Of a stretch of DNA of 64,000 nt, positions 56,701-59,700 are shown in pieces. Position 1 is the stretch's first letter. Every line of letters begins with the position of its first letter. The notes under the pieces are model-generated. The model was not told the DNA's origin. It ran no database searches and saw only the letters and a list, made by a program, of their open reading frames with translations. The translations under genes and the position numbers were made by a program. Source of the DNA: an uncultured Clostridia bacterium (GTDB taxonomy: Bacteria > Bacillota > Clostridia > TANB77 > CAG-508). The stretch spans positions 569 to 64,568 of the forward strand of contig CANRED010000005.1 in NCBI GenBank assembly GCA_947629555.1. The letters are read 5' to 3'.

Positions 56701-59700
56701 CTTGTAATTTCATATTCATGTTTTACTCCATTTAATGCTACTTCAACTTTTTCTATAGAGTATTTTGATTCATTTGTACTTGTAAATTGTAATACTACAT
56801 TTGTGCTATTTACTTCTTTTAATTTAAAATCACTTAATGTTAAATTGTAATTCTTTTGAATTTCAAATGTATGCTCTTTTAAAGTTTTTGCATTTTCATT
56901 TAGTCCGTTTCCTTTATTTGTATCTAAGTCGTATGTAATGTTTATTGACAATTTATATTCTACGAACTCTTTAATGCCTTCTAATGTATAATTTTGTACT
57001 ACATTTCCTGCTGTTTCTTCTGTATTAATGTTTATCTTTTGACTTTCATTTGCATTCGTAATTATTATAGTTCCACTTACAAATGCTTTTTCTGCATCTT
57101 GTAATACAAAATGTAATACTGGTTTTTCTCCGGAATCATCTATGTATAAATCTTCTATAGTTGGTTCTGATTTTAATATTTCTATTTCTAGTGCACAGTT
57201 AACTTCAACTTCTTCATTTTCGTAATAAACTTTTGTAGCTTCTATACTTTCTTTTCCATCAACTTTTCTTGTATCTGGCGCATTAAATGTTACTTTGTAT
57301 TTTCCATCTTCTGTTTTTGTAACTGGAAGTTTTGTTCCATTTATTAGTATATTTGTTATTTCTTTATCTGTATTATCTTCTATTGTGTAAATTACTTCTA
57401 CTATTCCACCTTTTTCAACATATGGGGTAATAGTTGAATTTGTAATATTAGCTTTTATTGGTTCTGTAATTTCTTCATCATAAGTCTTTGTTATTGTTGC
57501 TTCTAATCCGTCTCCTAAATCATAAGTAACCTCTACTTCTACTGTATATGTTCCAGATGCTTCTATTTGTATATCTGCAGATGTTTTATTTTCTAATTCT
57601 TGTGTTTTTACTATACTTCCATTTTTGTCTTTTACTTTTACTACTACTTTTTTAATTGTTTCATCTGCATCTGTTGTAGTTACTTCAACTTTTAGGTTTC
57701 CTTCGTTTAGTGTTGCTTCAATTTCATCAATTGTTGGACTATCTTTTAATACTATATAATCAAAAGTTCTATCTATTTTTTCTTCATGTCCATTTTCTAA
57801 TACAACAGATTGAATTGTTATAGAATGATTTCCTTTTCCTTCTGATTTTGGTAGAACTACTGTATATTGTCCATTTTCATTTTTTATTACCGGATATTCT
57901 GTATTATTTATTATAACTCCTCTTACATCATAGTATGAATTGTAGTCATTTTCAAATGATAAAATTAAATCTTCTTGTTTTGTAACTTTTGCAGTTACTT
58001 CCATATTTTTACTTCTAAATCCATAGTCTCTTGTAAATTCTAAGTTGCCATTTTTGTCTTCAAATATTCCATCTATAAAATCTTCTTTTGCATAATAATC
58101 ATTTTCGCTAAAGTAATCATGGTCTAAATCATAATCTACATCAAAATCATAATGATATGTTTTTCCATCTACTAAGTTTGCTGTAAACGTGTTTTGACCT
58201 TTCTTTATATCATTATATTCTTCTACTATATTTCCAACTTCATCTTTAATTACGAATTTACTATTTTTTAGTGCATTATCATCATCTACGAAATTAAAAC
58301 TTATTTCTGGTATTGTTTTTTTATCATCTATTTTGAAGTTTTCTACTTTTGGCTTATCTTTTAACACATCTACTGTAACCTTAAAGCTTGTAGGTACTAC
58401 TTTTCCATTATCTAATCGCACACTTGTTATTTTAATATCTTGTACTCCTGCTGTACGTGGCGCTTGTATTGTTGTTGTATAATGGTTATTTTCATTATTT
58501 GTTGCTACTTTCTTTAGGTTTATTGGTTTAAGGCTTGCTAACATTATTGGTTCAGCTTTCACTTTTGTTACTTGATAGAATTTGCCATTACATTCAACAG
58601 CTTCAACTTCTGTATATGGCGTAATGTCTATATGTAAATCTAATGTTATTTCTTCTTCCTTTTTTGGTGTAAGATTACTTACTGTTGAATTTTCTACTAT
58701 AGAAGAATAATTAACTTCTGGTGATGATTCTTCAGCTGGATTTGTTGGGTTAGATGGTTTATTGTTATTTCCACTATTTCCGTTGCTACTGTTTCCACCA
58801 CTTGTGCTTGCTGAATGATTTTGATTTGTTGCTTGATTTGTAGATCCTGCAACATCTGTTATATCTACTTTTCCATCTTTATTTATATCTTTATCTTCTA
58901 TATTTTCATCATCTTGTGGATTTTTTATTTCAAGTAAATATTCGATTATTTCTTTTGCATCATCATAATCTATTACACCATCGGCATTAACATCTGCATT
59001 TTTATTAGATAAGATATTTATTGTTAATACTAATAGCGCAATTAAAAGTATTATTGCTACTACTATAATCATCATTTTCTTATTGCTTGGTGTTTTCTTC
59101 TCATTACTCTTTTTTATATAATAAATTAAAAATACAATAATTACCACCATTAGTGCAATAAGTAAATAACCTACCCATGAATTATCTTTTCCTACTTCTA
59201 TTGATGTATTTTCTTCTACTGCTATTTCTTCTACTTTGCTTGATGGTAGACTTTCTCCCTCTGCTAATCCATCCTTTATAACTGTTACTTGTATTGTTTT
59301 ACTTTCTAATGGTATTTCTTTTTTTCCATCAGATGCTTTTATACTGTTTACAGTTATACTTGTTTCTCCTGGTATAGCATCTTCTTTTACTTTTAATTTA
59401 ATTTGTAAAAGTTTATCTCCACTTTCTCCTCTTTTATTTATTAATGCAAATTTGTTGTTTGCTCGGTTATAGTTTATGTCAGACCAATTTTCTTGCTCTT
59501 GGAAATCTTCTGTTGTTATAACCTCAAAAACATCCTTGTTATAGCTTAACTTTGCAGTATAAGCATACAAAGATGTTTCTTCTTCATTTTGAGTATCTAG
59601 ACCTATAGATAAAATTATTTCTTCTCCTAGTGATACTTCATTTTTACTTACATTTAGTATTGTCTCATTTGCTGCGTTTACATTTATTGCAAATGCAAAA

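Follow-up and report, generated by a model that had tools for sequence, protein, structure and literature searches.

The window, a stretch of 64,000 nucleotides from a contig of an uncultured Clostridia bacterium, carries on its minus strand a gene for a protein of 4995 residues, whose reading frame contains neither internal stops nor an in-frame CGG codon. The segment 58848-59672 (minus strand), in which the N-terminal modules discussed here are encoded, corresponds to residues 24-298 of this frame. The features of the gene are as follows, with arrows marking putative cut positions:

44754..59741, minus strand: whole gene, surface M26 metalloprotease precursor, 4995 aa (open reading frame)
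59673..59741, minus strand: N-terminal signal peptide, aa 1-23, with MKK, a hydrophobic core and a VNA↓A site (sequence reading)
59277..59672, minus strand: cohesin, aa 24-155 (PF00963, Pfam match 30-149)
59175..59276, minus strand: acidic linker, aa 156-189 (pLDDT 50-55)
59115..59174, minus strand: first transmembrane segment (TM1), aa 190-209 (VGYLLIALMVVIIVFLIYYI), running from outside to inside (hydrophobicity, AlphaFold2)
59076..59114, minus strand: loop, aa 210-222 (KKSNEKKTPSNKK), net charge +5, predicted to be cytoplasmic
59010..59075, minus strand: second transmembrane segment (TM2), aa 223-244 (MMIIVVAIILLIALLVLTINIL), running from inside to outside
58995..59009, minus strand: connector SNKNA, aa 245-249, with a candidate non-canonical signal-peptidase site (ILS↓N or KNA↓D)
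58830..58994, minus strand: type I dockerin, aa 250-304 (PF00404)
48042..58829, minus strand: stalk of about 3600 aa with repeated beta-sandwich-like modules
46443..48026, minus strand: M26 catalytic domain, aa 3906-4433 (PF07580, 73.3 bits, E 1.6e-20)
45609..46121, minus strand: M26_N-like segment (aa 4541-4648) and GLUG repeats, 3' of the catalytic domain (PF05342, 41.5 bits; PF07581, 43.6 bits)

Judged from its sequence, the 4995-residue protein is an M26 (IgA1-protease/Zmp) zinc metalloprotease. The zinc motif HETAH is located at residues 4220-4224 and E4245 is the third zinc ligand; H4220, E4221, H4224, and E4245 are invariant in the alignment of the catalytic domain (alignment A2). When the PDB was searched with the catalytic region as a single sequence, no match was obtained; a profile built from nine sequences was required, and it matched the solved IgA1 proteases 7uvk, 7uvl, 6xjb, and 6xja at E-values of 1e-52 to 1e-55. 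The GLUG repeats number three in all, with the best match at aa 4684-4711. At the other end of the protein, cleavage of the signal peptide (aa 1-23) is predicted from the -3/-1 rule, and the segment appears as a low-pLDDT helix in the AlphaFold2 model.

With the N-terminus scanned alone, PF00963 matched at 36.2 bits (E 8e-9, cut-off 24.1) over profile positions 4-132 of 139. A Pfam scan of the entire 4995-aa protein detected neither the cohesin nor the M26 domain, both of which surfaced in piecewise scans, and an NCBIfam scan gave weak matches only, driven by the transmembrane segments. Because the cohesin escapes the whole-protein scan and appears in the precomputed Pfam list of none of the 28 long homologues, routine annotation seems to miss this cohesin-bearing M26 family. 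The AlphaFold2 model of residues 1-310 (pLDDT 78.7) featured a beta-sandwich at residues 26-155, and comparison with the PDB using Foldseek gave 119 hits at E ≤ 1e-3, the top matches all being cohesins; these included 2jh2 and 2vo8 from C. perfringens, with TM-scores of 0.77-0.82 on the target, and cellulosomal cohesins such as 5lxv were also matched. Model and structural matches together agree with the nine-stranded beta-sandwich of solved cohesins. The best-conserved stretches, YAYTAKLSYDKDVF, NNKFALINK, and LLQIKLKVK, correspond to the modeled strands 60-66, 97-102, and 110-118. In solved cohesin-dockerin complexes the 8-3-6-5 face is the dockerin-binding surface, and by strand order these three strands are predicted to belong to it.

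The dockerin was matched by PF00404 on residues 249-298 at 36.0 bits (E 8e-9, cut-off 22.9) when the N-terminus was scanned alone, and it scores 26.1 bits even in the scan of the entire protein. Both calcium loops, DVNADGVIDYDD (250-261) and DINKDGKVDITD (285-296), are intact and of the DxNxDGxxDxxD type, and each is followed by a helix in the AlphaFold2 model (259-269 and 294-304). At the calcium-ligand columns D254, D261, D285, N287, D289, and D296, alignment A1 shows either invariance or conservation of at least 90%, and the same degree of conservation was observed for these columns and the core cohesin strands across 28 sequences reaching down to 24% identity. One sub-clade (P0019, P0168) has lost the calcium ligands of the dockerin and kept the cohesin, so the pair is not maintained everywhere.

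Between the two modules, AlphaFold2 models the hairpin as helices 188-215 and 219-245. The positive-inside rule places the +5 loop in the cytoplasm, and the cohesin and the dockerin should therefore both lie outside, on either side of the hairpin; nearly all of about 113 relatives likewise have a loop of net positive charge. An earlier note, made from the DNA letters, had read in this segment a cohesin at residues 24-155, two EF-hand-like loops as in type I dockerins, and two hydrophobic helices with a joining loop, and had both modules facing outward provided that the signal peptide is cleaved. The profile matches and, for the cohesin, the fold match bear out the modules, the helices are now placed at 190-209 and 223-244 in a layout that recurs in 113 other proteins or clusters and in a paralogue and is thus not a product of chance, and the conserved loop charge supports the orientation.

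TM1 is the counterpart of the hydrophobic stretch in a cell-wall sorting signal, and the KKSNEKKTPSNKK loop would double as the charged tail of that signal and as the n-region of the signal-peptide-like helix that follows. A sortase signal was taken to require an LPXTG-type motif no more than about 10 residues ahead of a hydrophobic segment with a basic tail. No LPXTG is found directly before TM1 in the 4995-aa protein, where EVGKDNSW stands instead, and its sole LP motif, LPSSK (165-169), lies 21 residues upstream of TM1 and lacks the T-G. Past TM2, the protein likewise lacks the V-Y-A motif that distant and split relatives carry. Of the candidate cut sites there, ILS↓N is acceptable and KNA↓D has a lysine at -3; relatives in the clade carry P, I, T, or K at -1, and counting small residues at -3/-1 past TM2 across the clade gave no clear signal. 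The hydrophobic core of TM2 spans 22 residues, compared with 16 in the N-terminal signal peptide of the same protein. Given this long core, the lysine at -3, and the -1 residues of the clade, cleavage past TM2 is doubtful here, and the lineage has lost both the LPXTG and the V-Y-A cleavage motif. We also considered an internal translation start at M223, which would give a separate dockerin-protease, and rejected it since no Shine-Dalgarno-like sequence lies upstream.

A search with the cassette returned 483 hits at E ≤ 1e-3, with cohesin plus hairpin in 113 proteins or clusters. The hosts are uncultured gut Firmicutes, the cassette being present in more than 100 protein clusters and nearly always on M26 enzymes (an M26 domain is present in 40 of the 44 hairpin proteins that reach 2000 aa or more); among genomes of the same order, 23 of 151 carry it. 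An LPXTG-like motif such as LPQTG, LPYTG, or IPKTG lies directly before TM1 in 21 of the 113 relatives. In several of the LPXTG-bearing proteins and of the distant members related to them, V/I-Y-A↓x closes TM2 and the dockerin follows directly.

Other relatives have the same parts in neighboring genes. In one of these split forms (G027), the first gene encodes a 313-aa protein with the layout signal peptide-cohesin-X-dockerin, and the next gene encodes a 3557-aa protein with a signal peptide (...GIIYA↓TDSNKGELNGD) followed by the dockerin and the M26 domain. The same layout with VYA↓V was found at a second locus (L060), and a further set (L061-L064, 21 contigs) comprises an adaptor, a weak-cohesin LPKAG anchor, and a gene for signal peptide (VIYA↓V), dockerin, and M26 domain. 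These split forms indicate that the position of TM2 is that of a true signal peptide and that the cohesin gene travels with the dockerin-M26 gene. Fusion of the frames by sequencing artifact was ruled out, as the fused form occurs in dozens of independent assemblies and in the paralogue.

The genome of the 4995-aa protein, 1.3 Mb in size with five sortase genes, encodes that paralogue on contig C10, with an identical layout of signal peptide, cohesin, two transmembrane segments, and dockerin. Identity between the two is 92-98% in the cohesin and 96% in the dockerin, compared with 51-74% in the hairpin and 20-46% in the remainder; the high nucleotide identity of the two modules could reflect gene conversion instead of selection. 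The search for further cohesin and dockerin genes that the earlier note had proposed did find them, bringing the totals in the genome to only four cohesins and to five dockerins:

Contig C12, 250-aa frame: sortase-type cohesin with IPQTG
Contig C21, 282-aa frame: sortase-type cohesin with LPQTG
Contig C3, 729-aa frame: dockerin-bearing protein
Contig C8, 6820-aa frame: dockerin-bearing protein
Contig C21, 1607-aa frame: dockerin-bearing protein

The AlphaFold2 pTM, an indirect proxy for pairing, was 0.70 for residues 1-310; with the dockerin removed (residues 1-247, same alignment) it was 0.52, and residues with pLDDT of at least 90 decreased from 55 to 12. The drop fits a predicted intramolecular contact between cohesin and dockerin. 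We consider that residues 1-304 probably form a self-contained surface anchor, which would have originated when an anchor protein became joined, in frame, to the enzyme that it held. Because the split forms carry these parts in neighboring genes, the signal peptide of the cargo appears to be the source of TM2, and the cohesin most likely pairs with the dockerin of the same protease.

We infer binding, its cis or trans character, and every processing step, and envisage the following course. The cohesin would be exported by the N-terminal signal peptide; TM1 and the lysine-rich loop, formerly a cell-wall sorting signal, would act as the stop-transfer part; and TM2, formerly the signal peptide of the cargo, would restart export and so bring the dockerin to the outside, together with the stalk and protease of 4,700 residues. 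Cohesin and dockerin, as a matched pair, would then form a non-covalent tie between the base of the protease and its own N-terminal fragment. In relatives with both LPXTG and V-Y-A↓x, sortase would join the cohesin to the wall and signal peptidase would free the dockerin-protease, whose dockerin would finally plug into the wall-linked cohesin. For the 4995-aa protein, provided that the modules pair, we lean towards a hairpin that serves as a permanent membrane anchor, with the pair as a cis clamp at the membrane surface; on the same proviso, the chance that a non-canonical cut past TM2 persists and that a hairpin-held cohesin retains the enzyme falls somewhat short of even. We propose only tentatively that, in a large and unstudied branch of M26 proteases made as single precursors, a single gene supplies a self-assembling anchor and its cargo, an N-terminal cohesin fragment capturing the dockerin at the base of the same enzyme. 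Such a fragment would be wall-linked via LPXTG in some lineages and membrane-held in that of the 4995-aa protein.

Counted against the anchor reading are that an uncut hairpin already anchors the enzyme, which makes the purpose of a cohesin-dockerin tie less evident, and that the two sortase-type cohesins and the three other dockerins of the genome could be the real partners. Without a matched pair, the protein would be cargo and scaffold at once: its dockerin would plug into the sortase-anchored cohesin of C12 or C21, tying the membrane-rooted stalk to the wall, and its cohesin would recruit the dockerin proteins of C3, C8, and C21. The four cohesins, five dockerins, and five sortase genes keep such cross-pairing a live rival. 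The cohesin and dockerin of one chain normally differ in specificity in cellulosomal scaffoldins, and among metagenomic proteins with modules related to these are multi-cohesin scaffoldins (P0029) and a poly-dockerin protein (P0097). We nevertheless regard cross-pairing as unlikely, as split operons place a cohesin of the same type directly upstream of the dockerin-M26 gene, and the cohesin of the 4995-aa protein is nearer to the adaptor cohesins of those operons (34% identity, E 1e-22 to 1e-24) than to the two LPXTG cohesins of its own genome (28-30%, E 9e-12 and 3e-6). Moreover, the C21 and C3 dockerins are C-terminal, internally duplicated, and visibly of another sequence type than the N-terminal M26 dockerin, and the gain in pTM with the dockerin fits self-contact. 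Short BLAST comparisons among the dockerins were too noisy for partner assignment.

The earlier note had suggested self- or neighbor-pairing with lattice or dimer formation. Self-pairing is plausible from the modeled pTM difference; for a lattice or dimer we found no evidence. With an uncut hairpin, binding in trans between neighbors would assemble the 0.5-MDa stalks on the membrane into dimers, chains, or a two-dimensional lattice: both modules face outward, the flexible 34-residue linker (aa 156-189) could reach a neighbor, the near-identical cohesins and dockerins of the two paralogues could interlink, and a single-chain AlphaFold model cannot separate cis from domain-swapped trans. However, none of this is specific to trans pairing, cis binding would be entropically favored where geometry permits, and the LPXTG-bearing relatives and split operons point to an anchor-plus-cargo fusion instead of lattice building, which makes the trans arrangement improbable. 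That cohesin and dockerin are non-binding leftovers of an ancestral processed anchor, with the hairpin alone anchoring, would agree with the loss of LPXTG and the V-Y-A site and with the decayed dockerin of the sister sub-clade, but is very unlikely given the conservation of calcium-ligand columns and core strands across the 28 sequences and the contrast between paralogues of 92-98% identity in both modules and 20-74% in the flanks.

The N-terminus of streptococcal M26 enzymes comprises a signal peptide, an LPXTG motif, and two transmembrane helices; the second helix has been proposed to act as a further signal peptide that signal peptidase cleaves (PMC3518915). Since this arrangement was already known, the hairpin is not new but an N-terminal hallmark of M26/Zmp proteases, and the flanking cohesin and dockerin are the new part; the earlier note, which knew of no description of the arrangement, had not recognized this hallmark in the hairpin. 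A literature search on cohesins or dockerins with M26, IgA1 protease, or transmembrane segments found no description of the layout. To our knowledge, the N-terminal anchor of M26 enzymes exists as a proposed processing model only, the experiments behind the model for Zmp anchoring reportedly being those of Bender and Weiser in 2006, and we know of no cohesin or dockerin described for streptococcal M26 enzymes. M26 proteases such as pneumococcal IgA1 protease, ZmpB, and ZmpC are important host-interaction factors. Like the streptococcal and Gemella IgA1 protease/ZmpA, ZmpB, ZmpC, and ZmpD, the 4995-aa protein has a homologous catalytic domain with HEXXH plus E, and it shares the order of signal peptide, two helices with a basic loop, long variable repeats, and then protease. 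Unlike streptococcal Zmp proteins, it has a full cohesin ahead of TM1 and a dockerin immediately behind TM2, lacks LPXTG, has a far longer stalk (about 3600 aa), and carries the M26_N/GLUG part 3' of the catalytic domain.

In cellulosomes, a sortase- or SLH-anchored cohesin holds dockerin enzymes via adaptor scaffoldins that bear both modules, as in ScaE/ScaB/ScaA of R. flavefaciens and OlpA/OlpB/SdbA of C. thermocellum. The same two module families are used here, the genome has two LPXTG cohesins, and the split relatives suggest a comparable hierarchy, from enzyme dockerin to adaptor cohesin and from adaptor dockerin to LPXTG cohesin. In contrast to cellulosomes, the cargo is a protease instead of a glycoside hydrolase, the dockerin sits N-terminally, directly behind a signal-peptide-like helix, and anchor and cargo reside in one polypeptide via a membrane hairpin, in a 1.3-Mb genome with four cohesins. 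The glycoside hydrolases of C. perfringens bear such modules on separate secreted enzymes, which they join into complexes, and we know of no membrane hairpin or self-anchoring described for those non-cellulosomal cohesin-dockerin pairs. The C. perfringens cohesins (2jh2, 2vo8, 2w1n, and 2o4e) are the best structural matches, and that species, also a gut Firmicute, has cohesins and dockerins on non-cellulase enzymes (PDB entry titles).

With the cohesin on the anchor side and the dockerin on the enzyme side, the M26 processing model becomes testable with two small recombinant domains, and protein engineering would benefit from a surface-display cassette that docks onto itself within a single chain. 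The arrangement widens cohesin-dockerin biology beyond the breakdown of polysaccharides, to giant proteases of gut bacteria with small genomes, and likewise to an N-terminal dockerin position and a fused anchor-plus-cargo precursor. If true, it would represent a naturally occurring clamp in cis, with cohesin and dockerin joined across a membrane hairpin, and would provide an explicit plug-and-socket basis for the long-proposed retention of N-terminally anchored enzymes of the IgA1-protease type.

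The protein under study (the C5 protein, on contig C5 of the source genome) carries its extra modules at the N-terminus:

Window 44754–59741, minus strand: whole gene, a single 14,988-nt ORF of 4995 aa
Window 58848–59672, minus strand: cohesin-to-dockerin feature at the 5' end of the ORF, exactly residues 24–298

A Pfam scan of the whole 4995-aa protein picked up nothing beyond the dockerin (26 bits) and a GLUG motif; the cohesin was called once the N-terminus was scanned alone (PF00963, residues 30–149, 36.2 bits against a cut-off of 24.1), together with Dockerin_1 (PF00404, residues 249–298, 36.0 bits against 22.9). 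A signal peptide of the typical kind (residues 1–23, ending VNA↓A) stands at the start, and two hydrophobic helices (190–209, TM1, and 223–244, TM2), linked by the loop KKSNEKKTPSNKK with a net charge of +5, lie between the two modules. The AlphaFold2 model of residues 1–310, based on an alignment of 28 sequences (mean pLDDT 78.7), combined a beta-sandwich with two long helices and a small helical domain; its best PDB matches were all cohesins, led by C. perfringens 2jh2 and 2vo8 (TM 0.77–0.82). The cohesin at residues 24–155, the hairpin, and the dockerin-like module behind it, which the earlier note had read by eye, are thus real.

Further Pfam matches were Peptidase_M26_C (residues 3906–4433, 73 bits, E 1.6e-20) and Peptidase_M26_N with GLUG (residues 4541–4711). 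A catalytic-region profile built from nine family members matched, over almost its full length, the solved IgA1 proteases 7uvk, 7uvl, 6xjb, and 6xja from S. pneumoniae and Gemella (E 1e-52 to 1e-55), and H4220, E4221, H4224, and E4245 were invariant in the alignment of this region. Streptococcal M26 enzymes are described in PMC3518915 as having a signal peptide, LPXTG, and two membrane segments, of which the second is proposed to be a second signal peptide. The C5 protein is an M26 enzyme, and its hairpin is thus a hallmark of the family; the novelty is in the modules flanking it, not in the hairpin itself, and a literature search found no published description of the cohesin-hairpin-dockerin layout. 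The M26_N-like segment and three GLUG motifs lie C-terminal of M26_C (window 45609–48026, minus strand, aa 3906–4711); going by the Pfam names, streptococcal enzymes would have them the other way round. The 4995-codon ORF (window 44754–59741, minus strand) contains no in-frame CGG codon; arginine is encoded by AGA (62), CGT (7), CGA (4), and AGG (1).

An exhaustive HMMER search with residues 1–340 against 1.8 billion cluster representatives gave 483 matches at E ≤ 1e-3, including dozens of proteins of 2,000–6,700 aa aligned to query residues 1 to ~300. In 113 of the retrieved sequences, two TM helices lie close together behind the cohesin; almost all of these have a net positive charge in the inter-helix loop, and in most the dockerin starts within ~4–10 residues of TM2. 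The M26 catalytic domain was present in 40 of the 44 hairpin proteins that reach 2000 aa or more. The carriers are uncultured Clostridia and Bacilli, mostly rabbit-gut ("Lapin") MAGs, and within the same taxonomic order the cassette was matched in 23 of 151 genomes and 10 of 29 genera. It is a conserved unit, and Cohesin is absent from the precomputed Pfam lists of all 28 long homologues. In a sub-clade of ~5000-aa M26 proteins (P0019 and P0168), the cohesin and hairpin are kept and the Ca-ligand residues of the dockerin have decayed, NVNTNSNISQQE replacing DVNxDGxxDxxD.

More distant members (21 of the 113) carry an LPXTG-type motif (LPQTG, LPYTG, IPKTG, and others) directly N-terminal of TM1. 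Among these and further distant members, several have V/I/A-Y-A↓x, the canonical signal-peptidase pattern, at the end of TM2 right before the dockerin (AYA↓FGNKGDLNGDG in P0120, GGVYA↓FGGKGD in P0126). Elsewhere the cassette is split. Genome G027, which also encodes a fused LPKTG form, has a 313-aa SP-cohesin-X-dockerin gene followed by a 3557-aa gene that starts MIGILKSKILKNKFILKISICILMFLLVCLGIIYA↓TDSNKGELNGD..., a signal peptide with a dockerin at once, and includes the M26 domain; locus L060 has the same layout with VYA↓V. At L061–L064 (21 contigs), three genes stand in a row:

Gene 1: SP-cohesin-dockerin adaptor
Gene 2: 239-aa cohesin-like protein ending LPKAG-TM (17.9 bits, sub-threshold but full length)
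Gene 3: 2661-aa SP(VIYA↓V)-dockerin-M26 protease

In these split forms, a genuine signal peptide of the cargo stands where TM2 does in the fused protein, and a cohesin gene of the C5 type travels with the dockerin-M26 gene. Just upstream of the operon at L061–L063 (~1350–4930) lies an agr-like set (AgrB, a 39-aa ORF, a histidine kinase, and a LytTR response regulator), which hints at quorum-sensing control. Two metagenome representatives, P0097 (836 aa; signal peptide, ~11 tandem dockerins, LPYAG-type C-terminal anchor) and P0029 (four tandem cohesins of the C5 type and a C-terminal dockerin), show that relatives make multi-valent scaffolds from these modules.

The genome search for further cohesin or dockerin genes, suggested in the earlier note, brought the totals in the 1.3-Mb assembly to four cohesins and five dockerins, alongside five sortase genes:

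C5, gene under study: cohesin and dockerin cassette
C10:27228–39137, plus strand: 3970-aa paralogue, same cassette (loci L004, L008)
C21:17654–18458, minus strand: gene pair of a 1607-aa frame with a dockerin and a small SP-cohesin-LPXTG-TM protein, 282-aa frame, LPQTG (loci L001, L005)
C12: small SP-cohesin-LPXTG-TM protein, IPQTG
C3: 729-aa frame, dockerin
C8:2102–2245, minus strand: dockerin in a 6820-aa open frame (locus L009)

The fifth dockerin (58.9 bits) is at the C-terminus of a 1607-aa open frame on C21 with the SP-cohesin-LPQTG-TM gene directly downstream, so this genome also holds a separate cargo-then-anchor gene pair. The C8 frame encodes a second giant protein with a dockerin; it opens with repeats that look RCC1-like by eye, and its dockerin is internal, near residue 6116. 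Between C5 and C10, the cohesins are 92–98% and the dockerins 96% identical (modules 92–98% at protein and DNA level), against 51–74% for linker and hairpin and 20–46% for the rest, including the stalk; this mosaic suggests strong selection on these two modules alone, for a shared specificity, or patchy gene conversion.

As a control for module contact, the same alignment was modeled after a cut at residue 247, which removes the dockerin. The pTM was 0.70 with the dockerin (1–310) and 0.52 without it, and residues with pLDDT ≥ 90 fell from 55 to 12. The lower value is about that expected from one rigid 130-residue domain within 247 residues, whereas 0.70 would need most ordered residues in one common frame, despite the low-confidence linker 161–180 (pLDDT only 50–55). 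From this gain we infer, indirectly, that the model places the dockerin against the cohesin, a result compatible with both cis and trans pairing. The predicted pairing of the two C5 modules is somewhat more likely than not. It is unlikely that they pair instead with other cohesins and dockerins encoded in the genome. The C5 cohesin is 34% identical to the adaptor cohesins of the split relatives (E 1e-22 to 1e-24) and more distant from its own genome's two LPXTG cohesins (28–30%). The earlier note's interpretation is supported in part: its modules stand, and the trans lattices that it proposed are quite improbable. That the modules are relics is very unlikely.

The C5 N-terminus is best read as an anchor protein fused to its own cargo. 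From the N-terminus, the order would be signal peptide and cohesin, a sorting-signal TM with a basic tail that doubles as the n-region of TM2, TM2 itself as the cargo's signal peptide, and finally the dockerin, the stalk, and the M26 head. In relatives with LPXTG and V-Y-A, sortase would attach the cohesin to the wall, signal peptidase would free the dockerin-enzyme, and the cohesin would recapture it; binding and cleavage, the key steps, are both putative. The lineage of the C5 protein has lost both LPXTG and V-Y-A: EVGKDNSW stands N-terminal of TM1, and the 22-residue hydrophobic core of TM2 is followed by ILSNKNA↓D, with K at -3; in clade relatives, position -1 is P, I, T, or K. Two courses are left: the hairpin may now anchor the protein permanently, with cohesin and dockerin as a cis clamp, or it may still be cut at a non-canonical site after TM2; should the modules pair, cleavage of the C5 protein would have slightly less than an even chance. 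The layout is new in joining two known kinds, the N-terminal hairpin anchor of M26 enzymes and cohesin-dockerin surface anchoring.
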